From Parcubacteria group bacterium Gr01-1014_31 (GTDB lineage Bacteria; Patescibacteriota; Patescibacteriia; Buchananbacterales; GWA2-38-13): 64,000 nucleotides of DNA. Shown piece after piece: positions 9,701-60,620 of the stretch; position 1 is the stretch's first letter, and each line of letters opens with the position of its first letter. The notes below the pieces were generated by a model that had not been told where the DNA came from, ran no database searches, and worked only from the letters and a program-made list of their open reading frames with translations. The DNA lies in assembly GCA_007376135.1 (NCBI GenBank), contig VMFR01000002.1, positions 156,870 to 220,869 of the forward strand, in the 5' to 3' direction. The translations under genes and the position numbers were made by a program.

Positions 9701-11190
<1,490 letters not shown>

Positions 11191-13868: not shown

Positions 13869-14456
13869 ATGATTTCCTATTCGATTCCAAAATCTCCTAG
13901 TGATAATTTATTCAATAAAAAGGATGGGAAGAAGACTCCCATTGTATCAATATTATCTTTATTGGTTTCTTTTGGAACCCTAGTTTTTGTTTTTTATAAC
14001 TATTTTTTTCTTGAGCGTGCACAAATAGGTTTAAAAGATTATAAAGTAATTAGAATGGATGATGAGGGGAAAACCAGGTACCAGATAACTTATAAATTAT
14101 CAAATTATGGGAAAGTATCGGCCAGCGATGTGTCATTTAAAATATACGCAATGACTATTAATGATGATAGCTTTAAAAAAATGATATGGTCAGATAGTAT
14201 AGTCAGCATCGTTGTCCCCGGGGCAGATTTCCCTTTTGGTGTAGATACCTTGGACTTCAGCCCAGATAACCTTGGGAAGAGCATGGCGCTGATTTTTGAT
14301 TTTGAATTCAATGATACGATGTTTTCCAGAAGAAAATCGCAGTTGTGGTTTAGGTATCAGGCAGGAACTGTGGGGGACAACGTGTTATTTTATTTACTTG
14401 AGAGTGAACGAGATAAAATTATGGAAAAATATAAAGAATTAAAGACCACACAGTAG
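13869..14456 (+). CDS. Hypothetical membrane-anchored protein encoded in a low-GC island
   Basis: AT-rich codon usage in an otherwise 65% GC window, with an N-terminal TM helix. No recognizable domain. Confidence 0.5.
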   Translation: MISYSIPKSPSDNLFNKKDGKKTPIVSILSLLVSFGTLVFVFYNYFFLERAQIGLKDYKVIRMDDEGKTRYQITYKLSNYGKVSASDVSFKIYAMTINDDSFKKMIWSDSIVSIVVPGADFPFGVDTLDFSPDNLGKSMALIFDFEFNDTMFSRRKSQLWFRYQAGTVGDNVLFYLLESERDKIMEKYKELKTTQ

Positions 14457-14547
14457 TAAATCATTGAAATAGTTCCAGCCGTTTGACTCCCCCAACTGTC
14501 CAGTAGTACGTTGCAACCGTGAGGGGTTAATACCTAATTTTCGTCTT

Positions 14548-15261
14548 ATGCGTCCCACAACAAAACGGCGAGCCGTGGTTATCTCGCTAGTAGCAGGGCT
14601 ATCAGTTGGTACTTTCGCCCTCGCGTCGCACCTCTCCGTTGAAGCGGAGAAGTTTTTTCAAAAAACCTGTACCCGATTAGATATAAAGGGTATTAACGCC
14701 TTTGTTTGCGATTTGCGCGAGAGACTCGACGCGCTCACCGTCCGCGTCGACAACATTCCCGCCGGCCCGCAAGGCGAACCGGGTCCCGCCGGATCACCAG
14801 GGCCGCAGGGACCCGCGGGTGCTGGACTTGTTGTGAAAGATGTCAACGACGTCGTTATTGGTCCTCTCGTCCAAATTGAAAATAATCAACTTCTCATTTG
14901 GAAACCGAGTATCCAAAGAGTGATTGAGCTTAACCCGGTTCTTGAAGAAACAACGGTCTTACATTCATTTGGTGTTGTACTTAGTTACGAGTCTAATGAT
15001 TGTACGGGAAACCCGGTGTGGGGCGAGGGGGCGATTCTCCGCGCCGACTATGATGTAGCGAATCCTCCAAGCCAGGAAGGGTGGACCAAAATGCATGCTA
15101 CCGATATCGTTGTGCAGGTTATTGTTAATAGTGAATGGAATAATGTGAGTCGAACCTGCACCGCAGTCCCTGGAAAAATTCTTGGAACAGCTGGGTTGAT
15201 GGTTGAAGGACCATTCGGTGGGGTGCCATATACCGGTCCACTTAAAATTGTTGAGGAATAA
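14548..15261 (+). CDS. Collagen-like triple-helix repeat protein (signal-anchored, Gly-X-Y run, C-terminal globular domain)
   Basis: GPQGEPGPAGSPGPQGPAGAG G-X-Y repeats and an N-terminal hydrophobic segment. Low GC. Confidence 0.6.
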   Translation: MRPTTKRRAVVISLVAGLSVGTFALASHLSVEAEKFFQKTCTRLDIKGINAFVCDLRERLDALTVRVDNIPAGPQGEPGPAGSPGPQGPAGAGLVVKDVNDVVIGPLVQIENNQLLIWKPSIQRVIELNPVLEETTVLHSFGVVLSYESNDCTGNPVWGEGAILRADYDVANPPSQEGWTKMHATDIVVQVIVNSEWNNVSRTCTAVPGKILGTAGLMVEGPFGGVPYTGPLKIVEE

Positions 15262-15278
15262 GGTAAAATAGTACATTA

Positions 15279-15312
15279 TCAACCCCCGCCCTCGCCGGCG
15301 GGGGGTTTTGTT
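15279..15312 (+). terminator. Rho-independent terminator
   Basis: aacccccgccctcgccggcgggggttttgtttt. Confidence 0.55.
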
Positions 15313-15356
15313 TTATTGCGAGTGCTAAATTCTTTTTTGTACGGTAAAATCAGGCC

Positions 15357-17126
15357 ATGCGTATTAGCTGGTTTTCCAGTCAACAATCGCGAAACACCCT
15401 GCTGGTAATTTTGGCTGTTGCCGCAGTATTGCGGTTCTGGAACCTCGGCGGGCCGGATATGGTGACCGACGAGGTGTACTACGCGCTGCGGGGTATTGGA
15501 TATTTGGATTACATCGGTTCCGACCTGCAGTCCACCCCCTTGTACTGGTTCAATCCCCTGCCGGCGTGGACGATGCTGTCTATGCACGACCACCCGCCGC
15601 TGGTGTTTTTGGTCGCCAATCTCTTTTTCAATCTCTTTGGCGTGTCGGTGCTGGTGGCGCGGCTGCCGTTTGCGCTGGCCGGCCTTGGGTCGGTGTTGTT
15701 GGTCTATCTCATTGGCCGTAAGATGTTTTCCGAACGGGCGGGGCTTGTCGCCGCTGCCGTGATGGCCGTGTCTAGCCACGCGGTGTTTGCTTCGCGCACC
15801 GCGCTGATGGAACCGATGGCCATCGTGCTTATCCTGCTGACGTGGTTCGTTTTTTTACTGGCACTGGAAAATCCAAAGTGGTTTCCGTGGTGGGGCGCTG
15901 TTTTGGGTTTGAGTTTTCTTGCCAAGTACACGGCGTTCCCGGTGTTAGCGGTTTGTGTTGCCTACCTGGCGTTGTTTCGGCGCGACATTTTTAGATTGCG
16001 GAAATTTCACGTCGGACTGTTTGCAGTCCTCGCGGTTTTCTCTCCCGTCATCATCTACAACGTGATGCTGTACCGCACCACGGGACATTTTGATTTGCAG
16101 TTTGCGGCCCTCTTGAAACAACAGGTGCCGGAGTGGCAGCTATTGGCAGAAAAGATACCGACCAGTTACTGGGATAATTTCATCGGCATCTTCCGCGGGC
16201 TGGTGGACGCGTACTCGCCCCTGGCATTGGGGTTGGCGGCGATCGGTCTTGCCTATTCGTTTTTGTCATTCCGGCCCCGGAGCCGGAATCCAGTAACCCC
16301 ACCGGTTTCTTTGAGCGAAAAAATCGGCTTTCTGGATTCCCGCCTTCGCGGGAATGACGAAAGTGCCAACCACATTTTGTTATTACTATTTTTGGTCGCC
16401 TACACGCTGCTCTTGGTTCTTATCAAGCCCCTGCCGCGGTTCCTCTCCTACTACCTACTGGTGTTCCCGCTGGCAAGTGGTGCGGCGCTCACCGCAGCAT
16501 GGCAAGCTAAGCGCGGGCTGGAGCAGTATGCGCTGCTTGGGCTTGTGGCGTTGGCCGCAATCTACGAACTGGGCTTTTCCGTGAATACCAATCTGGTGCC
16601 GTTTTCCTATGGCGCACCCAATCTCGCTTGGTCGCTGGTGCGGCCCTACACCTCGGACTTTGGCATTAACGCCCTGGACCGCTGGATAGATAAGGAATTG
16701 GCAGGGAAAACTTCCGCGGGCGTACCGCAGACGGGTACTGTGCCGCTGGACGCGGCTATCCAGCGTAATGCCGAGCGGTACGGCCGCGGCAAGCAGCAAG
16801 CCAAAGTACTGCTGGTCTATGATACTCACTTGCACGAGACTATTACGTTGTGGGTATTTGACCGCCGTTTCATCTACCAGGGATTTCCGGCGTACTATGC
16901 AGACGAATTTTCCGACACGGTTGAAAAGGAAGGCGCCGAAAAATTCAAGGGCTATACCATTTATTATGTTACGGGCACCGAGTACAGCCTGTGGCGGCAG
17001 CGCGGTACGGTCAGCGCGGCGGCGATGAAACTGGAAAAGAAACTCGTCGGCCAAGGGTTCTCCCCCACTCCCATCACCAACAGCGTCGGCCTGCCGGTGT
17101 TCAAGGCGTATCGGTTCGGGTTGTAG
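15357..17126 (+). CDS. GT39/GT83-superfamily polytopic glycosyltransferase (ArnT/PMT-like, undecaprenyl- or dolichyl-phosphate-sugar dependent)
   Basis: About 12 TM segments and an N-terminal DE/YY...G motif (VTDEVYYALRG). Overall topology is typical of the ArnT/PMT_2 family. Confidence 0.65.
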   Translation: MRISWFSSQQSRNTLLVILAVAAVLRFWNLGGPDMVTDEVYYALRGIGYLDYIGSDLQSTPLYWFNPLPAWTMLSMHDHPPLVFLVANLFFNLFGVSVLVARLPFALAGLGSVLLVYLIGRKMFSERAGLVAAAVMAVSSHAVFASRTALMEPMAIVLILLTWFVFLLALENPKWFPWWGAVLGLSFLAKYTAFPVLAVCVAYLALFRRDIFRLRKFHVGLFAVLAVFSPVIIYNVMLYRTTGHFDLQFAALLKQQVPEWQLLAEKIPTSYWDNFIGIFRGLVDAYSPLALGLAAIGLAYSFLSFRPRSRNPVTPPVSLSEKIGFLDSRLRGNDESANHILLLLFLVAYTLLLVLIKPLPRFLSYYLLVFPLASGAALTAAWQAKRGLEQYALLGLVALAAIYELGFSVNTNLVPFSYGAPNLAWSLVRPYTSDFGINALDRWIDKELAGKTSAGVPQTGTVPLDAAIQRNAERYGRGKQQAKVLLVYDTHLHETITLWVFDRRFIYQGFPAYYADEFSDTVEKEGAEKFKGYTIYYVTGTEYSLWRQRGTVSAAAMKLEKKLVGQGFSPTPITNSVGLPVFKAYRFGL

Positions 17127-29334: not shown

Positions 29335-30333
29335 GTGCCTATGCCCGAGACTACCGTGCGCAAGCCCAACGCTTTTGACGCGTTCGTCCACCTGGTGGCG
29401 TACGTCGCCCTGGTGTGGTCGGCCGTCTCCGTGGGCGGCATCATTTTTCAATTCATCAATCGGTTCGTGCCGGCGCTGGAACCAGGCGCGTACGTCTACG
29501 CGACCGACGCGGTCAGCACCGGCGCGTTGCGGTTCCACATTGCCACGCTGCTCTTGACCGGTCCGTTGTTGCTTTCCATGACCGCCTACCTGCACCGCCT
29601 GTTCAAGCAGGGTGCGCTGGTCACCGACAGCGGCGTGCGGCGCTGGCTGACGTACCTGCTCCTGTTCGCCGCGGCGGTCAACATCGTCGGCAGCGTCATC
29701 GCCTTGGTGTACCAATTCCTCGGCGGCAACTACACGGTGAATTTCCTGCTCAAAGCGGCAACCATCCTCGTGATCGCGGGCGGCATTTTCGGCTTCTACT
29801 TTTGGGAGCTGAAGCGGGGTACCTACCAGACCCGCCATCCCGGTGCCCTCCCGCTGGTGGCCGGCTTGGGCGTACTGTTCGTGGGACTGCTGATTGGCGG
29901 GTTTTTGCTCATCGGTTCTCCGCGCTTGGCGCGGATGCGCGAGTACGACCGGATGCGCGTGGACCGCGCGGTGCAGTTGAACTACCAGTTGGGCGATGAA
30001 TACCGTCGCACCGGTGCACTCCCCGCGACACTTTCCAATTTTGACCCGGCGTTCACCGAGGATCCGGAGCATGGCGCGCCGTTCGTCTACCGCAAGGCAG
30101 CCGACGACCGGTATGAGCTCTGTGTGACGTTCGCGGTATCCGCCCCCGAGCCGGTGGTACCGAAGGGCGTGCCGCCGTCGCGCGTACCCAAGCCCTATGG
30201 GGGCAGCGGCGGCGTCGAGCAGGCGTGGTACGAGCACGGCGAGGGCGAAGTCTGTAATACCTTTACGGTCAAGCGCCAAACTGCTGACGACCAATTCATC
30301 GAGACCCAGGTGGAAAAACCAGCTTCTCGCTAG
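29335..30333 (+). CDS. DUF5671-like membrane protein
   Basis: Four N-terminal TM helices then a soluble C-terminal domain, the arrangement typical of DUF5671 proteins. Confidence 0.5.
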   Translation: MPMPETTVRKPNAFDAFVHLVAYVALVWSAVSVGGIIFQFINRFVPALEPGAYVYATDAVSTGALRFHIATLLLTGPLLLSMTAYLHRLFKQGALVTDSGVRRWLTYLLLFAAAVNIVGSVIALVYQFLGGNYTVNFLLKAATILVIAGGIFGFYFWELKRGTYQTRHPGALPLVAGLGVLFVGLLIGGFLLIGSPRLARMREYDRMRVDRAVQLNYQLGDEYRRTGALPATLSNFDPAFTEDPEHGAPFVYRKAADDRYELCVTFAVSAPEPVVPKGVPPSRVPKPYGGSGGVEQAWYEHGEGEVCNTFTVKRQTADDQFIETQVEKPASR

Positions 30334-32380: not shown

Positions 32381-32577
32381 GGGAAACCTCCTTTGTAGTG
32401 TTCCATCGGGTTGGCGCGAAATTTGCGATTGTTCAAGGACATTCAAGCGCGGTGCTTGAGGGAGGATGCTACCAAAAAAATCATAGAATGTCAATATGAA
32501 CCAGTCGTTCGTCTTGGCGTGAACCTGAAAATTATGGCATAATATACTTATCAACATCACCACGTTTATTTAATTGT

Positions 32578-35295
32578 ATGGAGGGAATGCCCCAGCCGAC
32601 GCCGATGCCGCCCGTTCCGCCACGACCGGTCCAGCGAATACCGACCGCTCCGCCCGTACCGCAGTCCTCACCCGCCCCAAGACGTTCGCATCGGGGTTTG
32701 GTGGTTATCGTGTTGGTGTTGTTGTTTTTGGTCGCGGCGGGCGCCGTGGCTGCGCTCGGGTATTTTGGGGGGTGGTTTGGCCCCAAAAAGACTTCTCAGC
32801 TCTCGGATGACGAGATCCTTTCACGGGCGCTGCAGATGCTGCCAGAGATCAAGTCCGGCTCGGTTCGGTTTGACATCGGGTTCAAGTCCGAACCGCGCGA
32901 TGAGGGGGCAAAACCCATTACCGATGAGATTCCAGGCCTGGAAGAGCGGCGCAAGGCGAGAAATCGTGATGGCGAACGGCTGCAAGATATCCAGCGGTTG
33001 ATGTCCTCGCTGCGCGTTCGTAGCCGAAGTTCGACGAGTCCTTCCGCGAGCACCGGGGTGCAACCCAGCTACCCGCAGACTTTGGATGAGTTCGTGCTTG
33101 ACCCGGAAACGCGTACCGATCCCAGCGGCGGCAGCTATCGCTACAGCAGCAGCGGCAGCGATTTCTCGCTCGCTTTCCGCCTGGAAACTTCATCGGCGGT
33201 GGCCTCCTGGAACAAGCAACTGGATGGTACGCGCACCTACGGCAGTACCACCGCCGCCCCGCCGCGGGCCGTTGTAAATCAGGACATCACCCTGACGGCG
33301 GCGCATGAGACCCCATACGTGTATCTGGGCAGCGACGGTCTGGACCCGCTGGCGATGTTCGATAGCGACAGCCTGGATATGTACCAGTGGCTGCCCAGCG
33401 ATCTGGATACTTCATTCAACATTTGGAGCGATTTCCAGGCGCCGTCGGCCGACGGCAAACCGAGCAACGCATCCGCCGGGCTCGGCGCGAAGGTCGCGAT
33501 GGGCGCGTTCACCTTCGCTGGCAGCGGGGAGGTCCGCAAGGTTGGTGAAGTAATGTACGGCCGCGTCAACGAGTTTCCGGCACTTGGATTTTTCGACCTC
33601 AATGCCATCAAAGGCAAGTGGGTCGCGATGACCGAGGAAGATCTCATCGGCAGCGGCTTGGCCGTCAATTTCGCCGAGGTCAAAGAGGAGGTTTCTAAAG
33701 AGAACGCGACGGCCGTCAAGCAGTACCAGCTGGCGATCGCCTTGGCGCGCGAGCAGGGCGTGCTGAGCATTGAGCAGGTCCTGCCGATGACCGAAGAGAA
33801 CGGCGTTCGCTACCACCACTACCGGTTGAAGTTCGATCGCACGAAGTTCGTCGGTTATTACCAGGCGCTGGCGGAGCGTTCCAAGGCCGAGTTCGGCAAC
33901 GACGCGGTCGTGAAATTCAGCCAGGAGGTCGTGGATTATCTGCAGAACGAGGACTTCGCGCTCGCCTACGATGCTCTGGCGAAGAACACCGCTGCGGAAG
34001 TCTGGGTGCAGGAAAAGACCTATCTGCCGCGACAACTCGCATTCAGCGTCCGTCTGGTGCCGCCGGATGCGGCCATCAAACACGCCGGCAAACAGTTCAA
34101 GCTCAAAACGTCGGTGACGCTGGACAAGGTCAACCAGCCGGTGTCGGTGGAAGCGCCGTCCCCCACCATCAGCGTGGATGAGGCCACGGGGCTAGTTACT
34201 GGGCAGTCGCCGGCGCAGATCGTGCTCCAGCGCCAGATTCGCAACGTGGAGGCCATTCGCACGGCGTTACGGAAGTACCGCCAGCATGCCGGTGCCTATC
34301 CCGAGACGCTTACCGACTTGAAGCGTAAGCCGAGCGAGGTCCCACGCGCGACTCCGACTCCTAAGCCGGCTCGCGGCTCGCTGCAGGAAACCGTGAATAT
34401 TGGACTCCAGTACGGTACGGTCGTGGGGTTTGGCGGAACAGAAGATTGGGAGGAGCCGAGCACCAAGAACGACGCACCCTTCCTCAAGGTTATCCCGAAT
34501 GATGTCTACACCAAGCAGCCGTATCCGTACCAGCGCGATGGCGAGGGATACACGGTCAAATACCAGGTCCAGCTGGTCAAGGATGAAAACTCGGAGCGCA
34601 GTCCGTGGTCGTCGTATGCGCAGTACGTGGAAGGAGAGAATACCGCCGACCAGAGTTCTCTCTCGCGGGAGCAGGAAACGACCGAGGACAGCGATCATGA
34701 CGGTTTGAGCGACCGGCAGGAGCGGGATGTCTATGGCACAAGCCCGTATGATGACGACACCGACAACGACGGCTTCAAGGACGGCGTGGAGGTGCGCGGT
34801 GGCTATAACCCCAAGGGTGACGGTCGGCTGCAGACAGGGCAAACCCAGCCGGAAACCTCGTTGTCGGGAGGTACGACATCGGTGACCATGCGTGACCGCC
34901 AGCGCGTGTCCGACATGAAGCAGCTGCAAACGGCGTTGGAGATCTACTTCAACGACAAAGGCGCCTACCCGCCGGAATCCGGCGACGGTGAGATCGGCAA
35001 CCCGACCAACGGGTTCGGTTGTCTTGGTGATCTTGGTTGGGAGCAGGATAATATGTGTGCGTCACCGATTTACATGGGGTTGACGCCCCATGATCCGAGT
35101 ACCACCGTCGCTAACCCGGGGAATGACAATCCTTGCAAAACGGAAGGTGTGTTGCCGTGCAACTATTCCTACAACCAGTTGTCGGGAAACACTTACGAGA
35201 TTCATTTTCGACTGGAGGCAAACACCGGCGGCCTGAGCAGCGGATTGAACTGCGCTTCCGAGGCAGGCACAAGTAGTAAAGGATGCGTCCATTAG
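32578..35295 (+). CDS. Large signal-anchored surface protein with two internal type-IV-pilin-like head domains and Asp-rich Ca-binding (thrombospondin-type-3-like) repeats
   Basis: Pro-rich N-terminus then a TM helix. Two pilin-like segments (IVLQRQIRNVEAIRTALRKYRQHAGAYP and MRDRQRVSDMKQLQTALEIYFNDKGAYP) and DSDHDGLSDRQERD...DDDTDNDGFKDGVE repeats. Confidence 0.6.
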   Translation: MEGMPQPTPMPPVPPRPVQRIPTAPPVPQSSPAPRRSHRGLVVIVLVLLFLVAAGAVAALGYFGGWFGPKKTSQLSDDEILSRALQMLPEIKSGSVRFDIGFKSEPRDEGAKPITDEIPGLEERRKARNRDGERLQDIQRLMSSLRVRSRSSTSPSASTGVQPSYPQTLDEFVLDPETRTDPSGGSYRYSSSGSDFSLAFRLETSSAVASWNKQLDGTRTYGSTTAAPPRAVVNQDITLTAAHETPYVYLGSDGLDPLAMFDSDSLDMYQWLPSDLDTSFNIWSDFQAPSADGKPSNASAGLGAKVAMGAFTFAGSGEVRKVGEVMYGRVNEFPALGFFDLNAIKGKWVAMTEEDLIGSGLAVNFAEVKEEVSKENATAVKQYQLAIALAREQGVLSIEQVLPMTEENGVRYHHYRLKFDRTKFVGYYQALAERSKAEFGNDAVVKFSQEVVDYLQNEDFALAYDALAKNTAAEVWVQEKTYLPRQLAFSVRLVPPDAAIKHAGKQFKLKTSVTLDKVNQPVSVEAPSPTISVDEATGLVTGQSPAQIVLQRQIRNVEAIRTALRKYRQHAGAYPETLTDLKRKPSEVPRATPTPKPARGSLQETVNIGLQYGTVVGFGGTEDWEEPSTKNDAPFLKVIPNDVYTKQPYPYQRDGEGYTVKYQVQLVKDENSERSPWSSYAQYVEGENTADQSSLSREQETTEDSDHDGLSDRQERDVYGTSPYDDDTDNDGFKDGVEVRGGYNPKGDGRLQTGQTQPETSLSGGTTSVTMRDRQRVSDMKQLQTALEIYFNDKGAYPPESGDGEIGNPTNGFGCLGDLGWEQDNMCASPIYMGLTPHDPSTTVANPGNDNPCKTEGVLPCNYSYNQLSGNTYEIHFRLEANTGGLSSGLNCASEAGTSSKGCVH

Positions 35296-35423
35296 GTTTT
35301 TCAAAAATCGTCCCGGAAACGGGGCGATTTTTTTATTGCGGAATCAGGGGGTAAACTATTGACAATTTAGGTCAATTATGCTAGGATACACACTTCCCCA
35401 ATTAGGGGATTTTTTATTAGACT

Positions 35424-35897
35424 ATGGCCAAAAATTCAGTCTTCCGTCGCTCCTTTGGCGTAGCCGTTCTCGTCTCCACCCTCTCGCTGCTTTTGGCTAC
35501 CTATCCGGGCGTTGCCGCCGCTCCTCAGGGGGTCGACGACTATCCGGACGCCGTACAGCGTCAGGCGGAAATGGCCGCGTCCGCGCCGAAGGTCGTGCGC
35601 ACGATGAAGGTTATGGTGACGGCCTACAACAGTCTGCCCGAGCAGACCGACAGCACGCCGTGCATCACCGCCAGCGGTTACAACCTGTGCAGGGCCAATG
35701 AAGAGAACGTGGTTGCCGCCAATTTCCTGCGGTTCGGCACCAAGGTGCGCCTGCCTGAGTATTCCGGGGAACGGGTCTACACCGTGCAGGACCGCATGCA
35801 CCCGCGGTTTAACCGCCGGATGGACCTGTGGATGCGCGAACGTTCCGCCGCCAGGAAATTCGGTCTGCGGACGCTGACGGTGGAAGTGCTAGAGTAA
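35424..35897 (+). CDS. 3D-domain protein (MltA/YocH/SpsK-like peptidoglycan-binding/lytic domain) with signal peptide
   Basis: MKVMVTAYNSLPEQTDSTPCITASG is the 3D-domain signature; N-terminal signal peptide. Confidence 0.65.
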   Translation: MAKNSVFRRSFGVAVLVSTLSLLLATYPGVAAAPQGVDDYPDAVQRQAEMAASAPKVVRTMKVMVTAYNSLPEQTDSTPCITASGYNLCRANEENVVAANFLRFGTKVRLPEYSGERVYTVQDRMHPRFNRRMDLWMRERSAARKFGLRTLTVEVLE

Positions 35898-36108
35898 TCT
35901 CCATTAGTGCCAGAAAATGCCGCGGTCTTCCGCGGCATTTTTGGTCCCCGTGGCTTGAAAAGCGGTATTTACGGTGGTACGCTGGGGCGTACCAAGTGTT
36001 TGGGCGCGTTTTGCCCCGCAAGGGAAGACCGCCAGTCGAGGAGCTGTCCATTCAACCTTTTACATCATGTCTTTGTCGCGGTGGTGGGCAACATTTTGAC
36101 CCCATTGA

Positions 36109-36136
36109 GGCCAGGTAGCCAAGTGGTAAGGCAACG
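36109..36136 (+). pseudogene. Isolated copy of tRNA-Cys positions 1-29 (5' fragment)
   Basis: ggccaggtagccaagtggtaaggcaacg is identical to the first 28 nt of the intact tRNA-Cys 54 bp downstream. Confidence 0.65.
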
Positions 36137-36189
36137 CGGCGTCACGCGTTAAAAATTTCTTTTCGTAGAGTCGCTTTTGGCGGCAGGGA

Positions 36190-36261
36190 GGCCAGGTAGC
36201 CAAGTGGTAAGGCAACGGTCTGCAAAACCGTTATTCACGGGTTCGATTCCCGTCCTGGCCT
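36190..36261 (+). tRNA. tRNA-Cys (anticodon GCA), CCA not encoded
   Basis: Acceptor ggccagg/cctggcc, anticodon arm acggt-cTGCAaa-accgt, T-arm acggg-ttcgatt-cccgt. Confidence 0.8.
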
Positions 36262-36295
36262 CCTTGCCGCCAACTTCGTTGTTGCGTATTGATGG

Positions 36296-36360
36296 ACGGG
36301 TTTCCCGCCTCCGAAATATTTTTTTAAGAAAGGAAGGCGGGACCCCGCCAACGGCGGTGG
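36296..36360 (+). repeat. Copy B of the ~80-bp hairpin repeat (gggtttcccgcc / AT core / ggcgggacc / ccgccaacggcgg)
   Basis: Block-for-block homology with 26799-26875. Abuts the tRNA-Cys 3' fragment. Confidence 0.65.
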
Positions 36361-36379
36361 CGATTCCCGTCCTGGCCTC
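36361..36379 (+). pseudogene. Isolated copy of the tRNA-Cys 3' end (T-loop position 56 to acceptor end)
   Basis: cgattcccgtcctggcctc is identical to the 3' 19 nt of the intact tRNA-Cys and starts exactly at T-loop position 56. Confidence 0.65.
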
Positions 36380-36507
36380 GGTGCGGTCAATCGCGGTCGC
36401 GGTTCGTGTAGGGGTTGGTCGGTCCTCAGTCTTGGAGGGCCGATTTTTATGTCAGGCTTGCGAAAAATGCCGTTTTCTGATATTCTCAAGCAGTCTTTAC
36501 GACCCCT

Positions 36508-46062: not shown

Positions 46063-47103
46063 CTAGTCCAGCAGTTCGGGGTTGAGCATGTGAAATTGCG
46101 CCGTCTCTTTCGTGATCTCTTCATTGCGGAACAGGTTGATGAGGTCCTGGTCCATGGTGATCATCCCTTCCTCCGCGCTGGTCTGCAGCACCGTCTTGAT
46201 CTGCGCGATCTTGTTCTCGCGCACGAGGTTGGCGACCGCCGGGGTGTTGATCAGGATCTCGCGGGTGGCGACGCGGCCGCCGGTTTTCCTGGGGATGAGA
46301 CGCTGGGAAATGATGGCGCGCAGCGTGATGGACAGCTGCAGGCGGATCTGGGGCTGCTGGTGCGGGGGGAAGATGTCGATAATGCGGTCCATCGTCTGGG
46401 CGGCATTGTGGGTGTGGAGTGTCGCCAGTACCAGGTGGCCGGTCTCCGCCAGGGTGATGGTGGTGGCGATCGTCTCCAGGTCGCGCATTTCGCCGACCAT
46501 GATGACGTTGGGGTCCTGGCGCAGGACGTGGATGAGTGCGTTGTTAAAGCTGAGCATGTCGGTGTTCAGCTGGCGCTGCTTGATGATGGATTTGATGGGT
46601 TCGAAAACGAACTCAATGGGGTCTTCCAGCGTGATGATGTGCGAGGAGCGTTCGTTGTTGATGTGGTTGATCATCGCCGCCAAGGTCGTCGACTTGCCGC
46701 AGCCGGTGGGGCCGGTCACCAGCAGCAGCCCTTGTTGCAGGTTGAGCAGGTCGTAAACGATCTGCGGCACGTTGATGTCCTTGAGGGTCGGGATCTCCTT
46801 GCTGATGACGCGCGCGACCATCCCCAGGTTATCCTTTTCCCAGTGGCAGTTGACACGGAAGCGTCCGATACTCTTCAGGTCGTAGGAGAGGTCCAACTCG
46901 CGCTCCGTTTCCAGCAGGCCGTACTGTTTGTCGGTCAACATCGGTTTGATGAGCGCGCGGATGTCATTGCCCGTCAGCTTCGCCTTGCCGGGGATCTGGT
47001 GCAATACCCCGTCAATGCGGATGATCGGCGGCATCGCGGTCACCAGATGAAGGTCGGAGGCCTTGCGCTCGACGGCGATCTTGAATAACTCATCGATGCT
47101 CAT
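46063..47103 (-). CDS. pilT: Type IV pilus retraction ATPase PilT
   Basis: Walker A GPTGCGKSTT, Asp box and His box (VGEMRD, ATLHT) of PilT/PilU ATPases. Confidence 0.9.
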   Translation of the reverse strand: MSIDELFKIAVERKASDLHLVTAMPPIIRIDGVLHQIPGKAKLTGNDIRALIKPMLTDKQYGLLETERELDLSYDLKSIGRFRVNCHWEKDNLGMVARVISKEIPTLKDINVPQIVYDLLNLQQGLLLVTGPTGCGKSTTLAAMINHINNERSSHIITLEDPIEFVFEPIKSIIKQRQLNTDMLSFNNALIHVLRQDPNVIMVGEMRDLETIATTITLAETGHLVLATLHTHNAAQTMDRIIDIFPPHQQPQIRLQLSITLRAIISQRLIPRKTGGRVATREILINTPAVANLVRENKIAQIKTVLQTSAEEGMITMDQDLINLFRNEEITKETAQFHMLNPELLD

Positions 47104-57895: not shown

Positions 57896-58873
57896 TTGCC
57901 CTTGGGAAGCGGCCAAAACTCGTGGTACAATGCAAGAACTATGCAAGGAATTGCCTATCTTCCCCGCGCGTTGCGTCTGATGTGGCGCGAGCGGCGGCTG
58001 TGGCCGGCGGCGTTGGTCGTGACCTGGTCGGGCAGTTTGGCCGAGGTTGAATTATTGCGCCAGAGCGTGAACTTCGGCGAGCCGGGGTTGCCGACGCGGT
58101 TGGTGCAGGCGGTGTTGGGCTCCGGCCTGTTGAGCGGACGCGGGATGCAGGGTTTTCTGGATGAGCTGCGGAGCGATCCTCTCGCGGTCGGCAAAGTCGC
58201 GTTGGTGTGGGGGGTTGTGCTTTCAGTGCTCGCGGTGTTGACGTGGATCTCCATCGTCGGCCAGGGCGCCCTGGTCCACGGCGCCGCGTTCGCGGCGGCC
58301 AACCGTCCAATACCGCTGGCGACCGGGTGGGTGGAAGGGCGGCGGAGGTTTTGGACGGTGCTCGGGTTGAACGTGGTGGCGAAAGCCGTGGTGGCGGGGG
58401 CGGTGGTGGCGCTCATCCCGATTTCCTCCGGGCCGTTGGCGGTGTTTGCCGGCGCGTTCGTTATCGCGGCGGTGCTGGTGTTCGCGGTACTGGCGTGGTT
58501 GAAGCTCGCGGTTGCCGCGGCCGTGCTGGAACATCGGTCGCTGCGGCGCGCCGCACAGCGCGGATTTCATATCTTGATCGCCGAATGGCACGACGCCATT
58601 GCACTGGTGGCGTCCCTGGGGGTGCTGACGTTCGCGCTCTTCACGCTGCTGATGATCGTCGTCGTGCTGGCGCTGATGCCGTTCCTGCTGGTGCTGGGCG
58701 CGGCGCAATTACTGCAGTTCACGGCCGGCGCGCGGGTCTACGTCATTCTCTCGTGGCTGGTCATGGCGGCGATCGCCGCGTTCGGTTTGCTGCTGATCGG
58801 GGGCGTGCACTGGGTGTGCTGGACCACGCTCTACGCCAAGGCGGCCGCCGGCCGGCGCGAATCCGGCCGTTAG
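57896..58873 (+). CDS. Hypothetical polytopic membrane protein (Gly/Ala/Val-rich)
   Basis: Six or more hydrophobic helices. Alternative start at 57941. Confidence 0.45.
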   Translation: MPLGSGQNSWYNARTMQGIAYLPRALRLMWRERRLWPAALVVTWSGSLAEVELLRQSVNFGEPGLPTRLVQAVLGSGLLSGRGMQGFLDELRSDPLAVGKVALVWGVVLSVLAVLTWISIVGQGALVHGAAFAAANRPIPLATGWVEGRRRFWTVLGLNVVAKAVVAGAVVALIPISSGPLAVFAGAFVIAAVLVFAVLAWLKLAVAAAVLEHRSLRRAAQRGFHILIAEWHDAIALVASLGVLTFALFTLLMIVVVLALMPFLLVLGAAQLLQFTAGARVYVILSWLVMAAIAAFGLLLIGGVHWVCWTTLYAKAAAGRRESGR

Positions 58874-58889
58874 TCCAACATCCACTGCC

Positions 58890-60620
58890 ATGCCCGATCT
58901 CTCCCGCCCCGCTGACGTCATGGCGCGCCGCAAGCTGCCGGCGATAGCGACTGCTGCCGTGAGCGAACAGTTCACGGAAAAGATGGAGGAGATTGGCATC
59001 CGCGAGCGGGAACGCGAGGCGCAGGGAAAAGCGGGGCTGATGGGCGTGCCCTACATCAATCTGGTCGGGTTCGCCATTTCCCCGGACGCCCTGCAGCTGC
59101 TGCCCGAAGAAGAGGCCAAGGTGATCGGCGCCATTCCGTTCCTCTACCATGAGGGCGATATCCGTTTGGCGGCGTTGGATCCGACGGAGCAGGACGTGTA
59201 CCGGCTGGCGGAGCGGTTGACCAAAGATCATCACGCTCGCGTGGGCGTGTACCTTGTTTCCCAGCACAGCCTGGATACCGCCTGCAAACTCTACGCCGCG
59301 CTGCCGAAATTCCGTTCCATCGTCTCGGGCGTGGAGATCACCGAGGAGGAGTTCAAGAAGTACCAGTCGGAGATCAAAAGTTTTCGCGACCTGAACAAAA
59401 AGATCGAGGAGGTGTCGCTGACCGACCTGGTGACGCTCATTATCTCCGCTGCCATCGCGTCGCGGGTGTCCGACATCCACATCGAGGCCGAAGAGCGCGC
59501 CATCAAGGTGCGCTTTCGCGTAGATGGCATCCTGCACGATGTGGCGTCCATCGACCCGAAGAACTGGACCCGTATCATTGCCCGCATCAAACTGCTGTCC
59601 CACCTCAAGATCAACGTCACCGGCAAGCCCCAGGACGGGCGCTTCACCATTTTTTTGACCAAAGAGAAGATCGATGTCCGCGTGTCGGCGCTGCCGACCA
59701 CCTACGGCGAAAGCGTGGTGATGCGTTTGCTGCAGAGTTCGGCCGTCGCCCTGACGTTTGAGAGCCTCGGGCTGCGCGGCCGCGCCTTTGAAGACCTGCT
59801 GCAGGAGATCGACAAGCCCAATGGCATGATCATCACTACCGGGCCGACGGGATCAGGGAAAACGACGACCTTGTACGCCGTGCTAACCAGGCTCAACACG
59901 CCGGACACCAAGATCATCACCATTGAGGACCCGGTCGAATACCGGCTTTCGGGCATTACCCAGAGCCAGGTGGATGCCGGCCGCGGCTACACGTTTGCCT
60001 CCGGCCTGCGCTCCATCCTGCGTCAGGACCCCGACATCGTCATGGTTGGCGAAATTCGCGATCTGGAGACGGCCGATATCGCCATCAACGCGGCGCTGAC
60101 CGGCCACCTGGTGTTCTCCACTCTCCACACCAATGATGCCTCCGGCACCGTGCCGCGGTTTTTGGCGATGAACGTCAAGCCGTTCCTGCTGGCGCCCGCG
60201 CTCAATGCGATGGTCGGCCAGCGCCTGGTGCGGCAATTGTGCGACCACTGCAAGAAGCCCGAAAAGACCGACCCGAAACTGCACGAGCGCGTGGCCGCTA
60301 TCCTGCAAAAAATTCCTGAAACCTCGGGGGTGAAGGTGGACACGGGTAAAATGAGTTTTTACAAAGCGCCGGGCTGCGACGAGTGCCAGGGGCTGGGGTA
60401 CCATGGCCGCATTGGTATTTTTGAGATCATGCGCATGAACAAGGAGATCGAGGATCTCATCCTATCCGGCCACGTGTCCGAGTACGACATGCTGCGGGTC
60501 GCCGTCAAGCACGGGATGCTGACGATGCTACAGGACGGACTCTTGAAAGCGGTGGATGGGATGACCAGTTTGGACGAGGTCTTCCGCGTTGCCAAGGACA
60601 CGAGCGCGAGTTACGAATAG
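58890..60620 (+). CDS. pilB: Type II secretion / type IV pilus assembly ATPase (GspE/PilB family)
   Basis: Walker A GPTGSGKTTTLYA, Asp/His boxes and a CxxC...CxxC tetracysteine motif. Confidence 0.85.
   Translation: MPDLSRPADVMARRKLPAIATAAVSEQFTEKMEEIGIREREREAQGKAGLMGVPYINLVGFAISPDALQLLPEEEAKVIGAIPFLYHEGDIRLAALDPTEQDVYRLAERLTKDHHARVGVYLVSQHSLDTACKLYAALPKFRSIVSGVEITEEEFKKYQSEIKSFRDLNKKIEEVSLTDLVTLIISAAIASRVSDIHIEAEERAIKVRFRVDGILHDVASIDPKNWTRIIARIKLLSHLKINVTGKPQDGRFTIFLTKEKIDVRVSALPTTYGESVVMRLLQSSAVALTFESLGLRGRAFEDLLQEIDKPNGMIITTGPTGSGKTTTLYAVLTRLNTPDTKIITIEDPVEYRLSGITQSQVDAGRGYTFASGLRSILRQDPDIVMVGEIRDLETADIAINAALTGHLVFSTLHTNDASGTVPRFLAMNVKPFLLAPALNAMVGQRLVRQLCDHCKKPEKTDPKLHERVAAILQKIPETSGVKVDTGKMSFYKAPGCDECQGLGYHGRIGIFEIMRMNKEIEDLILSGHVSEYDMLRVAVKHGMLTMLQDGLLKAVDGMTSLDEVFRVAKDTSASYE

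Follow-up and report, generated by a model that had tools for sequence, protein, structure and literature searches.

The complete open reading frame (ORF) 32578..35295 (+) of the analysed window, a stretch of 64,000 nucleotides from the metagenome-assembled genome (MAG) of Parcubacteria group bacterium Gr01-1014_31, an ultrasmall uncultured organism, encodes the protein TSC76570.1 (905 aa and a stop codon), labelled in NCBI only as a ‘calcium-binding protein’. The protein is represented by a signal-anchor, a central domain of about 350 aa, which according to the structural model is probably lipid-carrier-like and of the LolA/LprG type in fold, two thrombospondin type 3 (TSP3) repeats and three modules related to the globular heads of type IV pilins, all of which lack alpha1-N, the N-terminal part of the first pilin helix. 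The last of these modules is a paralog of the head of the organism’s own pilin. The architecture is novel, although built from known domains; to judge from profile searches, the protein belongs to a family that is widespread in Patescibacteria, uncharacterised and without meaningful annotation. TSC76570.1 is a candidate for a cell-body-tethered adhesin or a ligand-capture protein of the envelope, a role for which the chances appear to be even.

Pilin-head modules without the N-terminal helix

Pilin-head modules were found at about residues 121-216, 545-690 and 767-905, each starting at alpha1-C. Their assignment as globular heads rests on sequence identity and the AlphaFold2 (AF2) model for module 3, and on profile homology and helix-strand secondary structure for modules 1 and 2.

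A search with module 3 alone yielded only small pilins of 169-231 aa with the PF07963 domain, at an identity of up to 80%. Closest are the pilins P0154 and P0153 of 171-172 aa, with PF07963 and leaders MKTRKG↓FTLIELL (the arrow marks the cleavage position), to which module 3 is 78-80% identical at the amino acid level, with all six cysteines kept. In the alignment, the pilins read MKTRKG↓FTLIELLVVIAIIGLLSTLAVVALNSARQKARDSKRVSDMKQLQTALEIYFNDKGAYPPE..., and TSC76570.1 joins at RDRQRVSDMKQL, exactly where alpha1-N ends; a Gly/Thr/Ser-rich linker stands where the pilins have their leader and alpha1-N.

Pilin P0154 (TSC76101.1), 78% identical to module 3, is encoded on contig k139_478842 of ENA assembly ERZ27284378, to which the contig of the window also belongs. 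The pilin contig has a GC content of 61.2% and a tetranucleotide correlation with the window of r = 0.98, and from accession arithmetic (TSC76101 against TSC76570-76592 in the window, with locus tags up to _725 and the same name prefix) we infer that it belongs to the MAG of the window. It carries a complete pilus cluster in the order PilM...PilB-response regulator-PilT-PilC-pilin-pilin, with its own 576-aa PilB and a 359-aa PilT-like ATPase. The head region, 80.5% identical over 379 nt (positions 10122-10494 of the pilin locus), is the only stretch in which the DNA of this contig resembles that of the window. Between module 3 and the head of P0154, synonymous divergence (dS) is about 1.0 and the ratio of nonsynonymous to synonymous divergence (dN/dS) is 0.14; by these estimates, the copy is therefore not recent and is under purifying selection. 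Orthologs P0002, P0003 and P0006 have heads with just 33-39% identity to module 3, compared with 45-48% for the remainder of each protein; accordingly, the C-terminal head was replaced or separately acquired in the lineage of TSC76570.1. An assembly chimera as the source of module 3 was considered and rejected, the same 905-aa ORF being present in two independent assemblies, ortholog heads lying at the same position and nucleotide identity to pilA being only 80%.

Modules 1 and 2 are, on profile evidence, homologous to pilin heads. A jackhmmer search seeded with module 3 found module 2 in nearly all family members and module 1 in the majority; in TSC76570.1 itself the matches cover residues 126-208, 550-697 and 765-905. 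By hhalign, module 1 matched module 2 with a probability of 97.5% (E 6.8e-12) and true pilins with 96.9% (E 1.8e-10); module 2 matched true pilins with 81%, over the helix. Module 2 passes the gathering score of Pfam T2SSG (PF08334; 25.1 vs 21 bits, E 1.8e-5, residues 555-590), and T2SSG matches were found in 24 of 60 family members, with a best E of 2.4e-13, while the NCBIfam equivalog of GspG, TIGR01710, stayed far under its cut-off (17.1 vs 88.85); TSC76570.1 therefore has a domain of the T2SSG type but is not a GspG ortholog. GspG/EpsG was the sole recurrent PDB family matching both modules, weakly (E 0.09-0.5; for module 2, 0.09-0.3). PDB profile matches of module 1 to antibody light chains (E 0.0015-0.8), with the pattern WYQQKPG...SGSGTDFTLTI, were judged to be due to chance.

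Among 64 metagenomic loci carrying a head-type motif, the helix FTLIELLVVIAIIG, preceded by G or A at the cleavage position, lies directly upstream of the motif in 61, and only two of the 64 have the head embedded in a large ORF. Since nearly all heads of the module 3 type sit on canonical pilins, helix-less heads are uncommon and the architecture of TSC76570.1 is unusual, as far as this survey extends.

An earlier note, made from the letters of this DNA, had described a signal-anchored 905-aa protein of unusual architecture with Asp-rich repeats and with motifs that normally follow the hydrophobic alpha1 helix; the ORF, the single transmembrane helix at ~41-63, the two DxDxDG units with TSP3_bac over its cut-off and the survey of loci agree with this description. 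Both motifs named there are present, IRNVEAIRTALRKYRQHAGAYP at residues 554-575 instead of ~530 and RDRQRVSDMKQLQTALEIYFNDKGAYP at 772-798 instead of ~760. The two internal heads without helices of their own, which it proposed, are supported by the T2SSG match and by the 78-80% identity to pilins, and the structure prediction it called for gave helix-plus-strand elements at 545-690 and 767-899; its count was too low, the third head lying at ~121-216. It also overlooked the LprG/LolA-like core and the paralogy of module 3 with the cell’s own pilin.

The N-terminus of TSC76570.1 is represented by a tail of 40 aa and a transmembrane helix, for which an N-in/C-out topology would follow from the positive-inside rule. 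The basic-then-hydrophobic pattern is kept in the family, as judged from 96 members, with a tail length of ~0 to ~230 aa. In prepilins, the class III signal peptide consists of a short, basic leader up to Gly-1, behind which prepilin peptidase cuts; F/M+1 and then Glu5 usually follow. TSC76570.1 reads RRSHRG↓LVVIV at this place, with R36, R39 and G40 invariant in the four closest orthologs and the hydrophobic helix next. For this invariance, RRG↓LVV was considered as a prepilin cleavage site of the family, and it was ruled out by the 96 N-termini: Glu5 is absent from all of them and Gly-1 from most, the residue before the hydrophobic stretch being variable. With no Glu5, no family-wide Gly-1 and a long variable leader, TSC76570.1 lacks a class III signal peptide. 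The prepilin motif G[FM]TLIE was found neither in the ORF nor in any frame of the window, which contains no canonical pilin gene, and no match to N_methyl (PF07963) was obtained for TSC76570.1 in Pfam and NCBIfam, its pilin-type modules being internal or C-terminal. A continuous alpha1 helix of ~50 residues, in which alpha1-N passes into alpha1-C, is absent from the model as well: the transmembrane helix 41-63 is predicted to be followed by coil (64-76) and then by the LolA-like domain.

The likeness to type IV pilins and GspG lies in the heads (module 3 by identity and the same six cysteines, module 2 by T2SSG, module 1 by profile homology to both), whereas these heads have neither class III signal peptide nor alpha1-N and are parts of a 905-aa signal-anchored protein, which would be unable to polymerise as pilins do. 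A precedent for a head encoded apart from the alpha1-N helix is the split pilin PilA-N/PilA-C of Geobacter (PDB 6vk9), in whose filament PilA-C, devoid of alpha1, is joined to PilA-N by non-covalent contacts. The C-terminal end of PilA-N weakly matches the motif of module 3 (E 0.17). In contrast to PilA-C, the modules of TSC76570.1 keep alpha1-C and are tethered covalently to a membrane protein. Modular pilins contain a pilin module and functional modules in one polypeptide and are thought to diversify adhesion (PMC8179133). Streptococcus sanguinis PilB/PilC, CofB and GspK resemble TSC76570.1 in joining a pilin module to unrelated modules, but in them a complete N-terminal pilin module takes the extra domain into the filament. 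TSC76570.1 inverts this design, helix-less heads being grafted on a non-pilin membrane protein that would stay on the cell; the arrangement by which modular pilins are recognised, an N-terminal IPR012902/PF07963 module followed by extra modules (Raynaud et al. 2021), was not found in it.

The probable LolA/LprG/LppX-like core and the protein family

The AF2 model built from an alignment of 96 family sequences had a mean predicted local distance difference test (pLDDT) of 82.5 and a predicted template modelling score (pTM) of 0.70; an alignment of four sequences gave a pLDDT of 40 and was unusable. The predicted elements are, in order, the transmembrane helix 41-63; helix 77-90; strands 93-106; helix 121-151 (31 residues); beta-hairpin 188-201; helix 205-216; a beta-rich domain with helical inserts, 236-532; helix 545-571 (27 residues); a disordered loop, 598-623; strands 651-690; the TSP3 region; a low-confidence linker; helix 767-794 (28 residues); and strands from 815 to 899.

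In the Foldseek comparison with PDB, the core was closest to LprG (3mh9, E 4.7e-4, probability 1.00), followed by LppX (2byo, 4.4e-3), RseB (2v43, 7e-2) and LmcA (7n3v). All of the top seven matches were LprG, LppX, RseB or LmcA (E 4.7e-4 to 0.2; probability 1.00-0.8 for the first five), with target-normalised template modelling scores of only 0.34-0.40. Residues 77-117 and 236-532 had no sequence match in Pfam, NCBIfam or PDB, and DUF6612 was matched weakly by just one family member (E 0.003). LprG and LppX (mycobacterial), RseB and LmcA, the best fold matches in PDB, all bind hydrophobic ligands (lipid, lipoglycan or lipoprotein). Proteins of the LolA/LolB/LppX-LprG superfamily are unclosed (half) beta-barrels under a helical lid, with a hydrophobic cavity for acyl chains, and the modelled core may possess a pocket of this kind. 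TSC76570.1 differs from LprG and LolA in that the predicted likeness is one of fold only, in its larger core (~350 aa, with helical inserts) and in its anchor, a transmembrane helix instead of a lipobox. It also carries a pilin-like insertion: in P0072 and P0139, which lack module 1, the N-terminal strands run straight into the core, which makes module 1 an insertion within the LolA-like domain.

Exactly two DxDxDG units were found in TSC76570.1, matching Pfam TSP3_bac (PF18884) with 29.4 bits vs a cut-off of 25 (E 7e-7). TSP3_bac was matched by 46 of 60 family members, and the PDB match is 7c7r, Bap (E 4.6e-6). These repeats are held in common with TSP3 surface proteins of the Bap type, and the family names in public annotation derive from them. 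In TSC76570.1 they occupy only ~40 of the 905 aa.

The word-indexed homolog search returned only four clusters at ~45% identity, and a profile of these four sequences added none; the family was revealed by an exhaustive HMMER search. Proteins of 550-1030 aa that match profile positions ~5-744 in one stretch (E 1e-70 to 1e-130) make up about 95 of the 150 best representatives; the others, giant proteins with TSP3 repeats, match in the repeats only and, though they dominate the HMMER list, are otherwise unrelated. The named members are ‘hypothetical’ or ‘thrombospondin type 3 repeat-containing’ proteins of Patescibacteria/Parcubacteria. No description of the family was found in the literature on pilin-like domains, LprG or LolA in Patescibacteria.

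The order of domains is conserved in the family: a variable tail with the transmembrane helix, the LolA/LprG/LppX-like half-barrel with the inserted pilin head, the T2SSG-like head, two TSP3 repeats and a variable C-terminal domain. Past the TSP3 repeats, one or two tandem pilin heads were found in ~12 of 96 members, DsbA/thioredoxin domains in four of 60, a PDZ domain in one and Laminin_G_3 in one. From this distribution, the conserved core seems to be a platform for interchangeable C-terminal modules. Relatives with other C-terminal domains include P0027, P0013 and P0103.

Gene context

The 905-aa ORF has the GC pattern by codon position of real genes of the window, the GC content of which is 61%. 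Its ATG start (Table 1) is backed by residues conserved with orthologs upstream of the transmembrane helix, the orthologs at 45-48% identity aligning from the N-terminus onward, and the NCBI call agrees. The ENA call for the same ORF (P0001, 861 aa) begins at residue 45, within the transmembrane helix (window 32578-32710), and the membrane anchor may often be lost in automated annotation of the family. Since this gene and the following one each have a promoter-like site in front (that of the latter at 35359-35387; consensus matches only), the sequence suggests that the TSC76570.1 gene is monocistronic.

Table 1. Features of the TSC76570.1 gene and of the region upstream of it, in window coordinates
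Feature	Residues	Coordinates	Strand	Basis
Promoter-like site, TG-extended TTGGCG-18-CATAAT		32514..32543	+	~35 nt upstream of ATG; consensus match only
Pro-rich cytoplasmic tail, basic end RRSHRG	1-40	32578..32697	+	AF2 pLDDT <50
Single transmembrane signal-anchor helix, putatively N-in/C-out	41-63	32698..32766	+	Hydropathy; AF2 helix 41-63
Start of the LolA/LprG-like domain: helix and first beta-strands	77-117	32806..32928	+	AF2 helix 77-90, strands 93-106; pLDDT 88-98
Module 1, pilin-head-like: 31-residue helix, beta-hairpin, helix	121-216	32938..33225	+	hhalign, jackhmmer, AF2
Main body of the probable LolA/LprG/LppX-like half beta-barrel, with helical inserts	236-532	33283..34173	+	Foldseek; pLDDT mostly >90
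Module 2, T2SSG-like pilin head, with IRNVEAIRTALRKYRQHAGAYP and a disordered loop at 598-623	545-690	34210..34647	+	Pfam T2SSG; AF2 helix 545-571, strands 651-690
Two bacterial TSP3 (DxDxDG) Ca2+-binding repeats	704-745	34687..34812	+	Pfam TSP3_bac; DSDHDG at 704, DTDNDG at 727
Flexible linker, at the position of pilin alpha1-N	746-766	34813..34875	+	pLDDT <50 at 759-767; pilin alignment
Module 3, complete type IV pilin head (alpha1-C, beta-sheet, six conserved Cys)	767-905	34876..35292	+	Pilin alignment; AF2 helix 767-794

The neighbours are a divergent CNNM/CBS gene and the gene of a conserved secreted protein of 157 aa, after which come infB-rbfA-DHH-clpP-rny-ymdB-hup, an order kept in close orthologs. 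The 157-aa protein (35424-35897, +), directly downstream, has an N-terminal signal-like segment and is 66-73% identical and syntenic in ortholog loci L001 and L002; it has no Pfam match and is absent beside distant family members. The guess by eye that it is a 3D-domain protein was supported neither by Pfam nor by the module hidden Markov models (HMMs). A DUF5671 membrane protein (29335-30333, +) is also encoded upstream of the family gene in L001; its C-terminal third (...GALPATL...FVYRKAADDRYELCVTF) looked pilin-head-like by eye, which neither the pilin-module HMMs nor Pfam bore out.

The PilT (46063-47103, -) and PilB (58890-60620, +) genes of the window encode T2SSE ATPases. The earlier note had pointed to both as lying within 25 kb of the gene; the genes are real, but a positional link is not, as housekeeping genes lie between and the pilus cluster is on the other contig. 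PilT and the 576-aa PilB of the window are orphan ATPases amid housekeeping genes, and between the two PilB genes, that of the window and that of the pilus cluster, no similarity was detectable by blastn. A 325-aa ORF (57896-58873, +) stops 17 nt before the beginning of PilB and has no Pfam match even at E <= 1; it may encode an unrecognised pilus-associated component.

The gene of tRNA-Cys (36190-36263), between the 157-aa gene and infB, has partial duplicates on both flanks (window 36094-36390): its 5' part (36175-36217) is repeated at 36094-36136 with 88% identity, and its 3' end (36244-36273) at 36361-36390 with 87% identity. These repeats could be integration scars or tRNA fragments. GC content dips to 48.5% at 14001-16000, compared with ~61% elsewhere, next to a PMT_2-type glycosyltransferase gene (15357-17126), and the dip may mark foreign DNA.

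Candidate function and significance

Since both the class III signal peptide and alpha1-N are lacking, TSC76570.1 would not be processed by prepilin peptidase or polymerised into a pilus, and its heads would therefore be held out from the cell membrane on a tether. The protein would act at the cell body, as a bitopic N-in/C-out protein, in the role of a short-range adhesin or ligand-capture device. Its tethered PilA-like head would offer the binding surface that the pilus shaft also has, the TSP3 repeats with bound Ca2+ would stiffen the stalk, and the LprG-like pocket would take a hydrophobic ligand, lipid or lipoglycan, of host or envelope origin. Module 3 is a full head copied from the organism’s own pilA-type gene and under purifying selection, with the flexible linker at the point of alpha1-N. 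Surface adhesins and pili are essential for the epibiotic growth of Patescibacteria (PMC10633639), which lack lipid synthesis and for which no lipid-uptake mechanism has been identified (PMC11665869); an adhesin or ligand-capture protein would fit this attached lifestyle, the essential adhesins and pili and the missing lipid synthesis.

Several points weigh against this reading. The variants with DsbA and PDZ domains suit envelope maintenance as well as an adhesin role. The gene neighbourhoods are uninformative, synteny being found only among close orthologs and distant members differing. For modules 1 and 2, the assignment of the fold is based on profiles and secondary structure, an indirect kind of evidence. 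In pattern scans of genome contigs with the head of P0003 and of metagenome contigs with that of P0006, which covered close relatives only, no twin among the own pilins was found, none being closer than ~43%, and the close match of the head to the cell’s own pilin may not be general.

The first of the alternatives, unlikely but to be taken seriously, is an envelope housekeeping carrier, in which the LolA/LprG-like domain would ferry lipids or lipoproteins of the cell itself through the wall space and the pilin-like modules and TSP3 repeats would be mere stalk or spacer domains, unrelated to pilus biology. It would account for the fold of the core and for the DsbA/thioredoxin or PDZ domains at the C-terminus of some members, typical of envelope maintenance. 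The gene of TSC76570.1 is syntenic with housekeeping genes, and neighbours of distant members are often genes of the envelope or cell wall, for example those of Ala racemase, S41 peptidase, sortase, WecG and M23. For a mere spacer, however, the 78% identity of module 3 to the cell’s own pilin head at a dN/dS of 0.14 is unexpected; C-terminal pilin heads are present in ~12 of 96 members, which also speaks against this reading, and outward export is less obvious in Patescibacteria, which lack lipid synthesis (PMC11665869).

Slightly more doubtful is an accessory of the pilus machinery, whose tethered heads would dock, within the wall space, on pilins or on the pilus base as a platform, chaperone, retention or anchoring device, its DsbA relatives oxidising pilin disulfides. 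The genome contains type IV pilus genes, three pilin-type heads are present, one of them nearly identical to the cell’s own pilin, and that pilin has three conserved Cys pairs; DsbA domains occur in four members of the family. Pilin-pilin contacts in type IV filaments are, however, dominated by alpha1-N, which is missing from the heads of TSC76570.1; no pilus genes adjoin the family gene in the five neighbourhoods examined, and no type IV pilus component is known to have this architecture, which also weighs against such an accessory.

A non-canonical minor pilin or pilus-tip adhesin, cleaved by prepilin peptidase at RRG↓LVVIV... and using the transmembrane helix as alpha1-N, is very improbable. 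The invariant residues of the closest orthologs before the hydrophobic helix speak for it, and GspK and TM7x PilX2 are minor pilins without Glu5 or with non-canonical signal peptides (PMC8179133, PMC11623550). In the wider family, Gly-1 is not conserved and Glu5 is absent from all members; the leader of 40 aa, reaching ~230 aa in relatives, is long, no continuous alpha1 leads into a head, and the gene lies outside the pilus cluster, in a window without a canonical pilin gene. The pilus-tip adhesin and the prepilin peptidase site raised by the earlier note are not supported, on these grounds and from the absence of pilus genes in the five neighbourhoods. A receptor decoy, in which the tethered head soaks up pilus-specific phages or other pilin-binding agents, is hardly credible: the one point in its favour is how closely module 3, under purifying selection, resembles the cell’s own pilin. 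It has no supporting context and leaves the conserved core (LolA-like domain and modules 1 and 2) unexplained, and a phage bound at the cell body would more likely be aided in infection than hindered.

The adhesin or ligand-capture role may also be put in a bolder form, rather improbable as it stands: a membrane-anchored, LprG-like lipid-binding family found throughout Patescibacteria would have domesticated helix-less pilin heads, one of which in TSC76570.1 is a copy of the head of the cell’s major pilin kept by selection, as the missing device to hold the host and harvest its lipids. Pilus retraction would draw the host to the cell body, the tethered heads would rebind the same receptor, and the pocket would extract host lipids or lipoglycans for a cell unable to make lipids itself.

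If the function is only structural, the result is still a useful correction of the annotation of hundreds of ‘calcium-binding’ or ‘TSP3 repeat’ proteins. For the biology of type IV filaments, it indicates that non-pilin proteins can reuse pilin heads as domains in their own right and that selection can keep a copy of the major pilin head away from the filament, which turns the ‘modular pilin’ principle around. Much of bacterial diversity belongs to Patescibacteria, which live attached to hosts, and how they are held at close range is largely unexplained. With a probable lipid-carrier fold joined to pilin heads that would not enter a pilus, the family of TSC76570.1 is a concrete, clonable candidate for host holding and lipid uptake.

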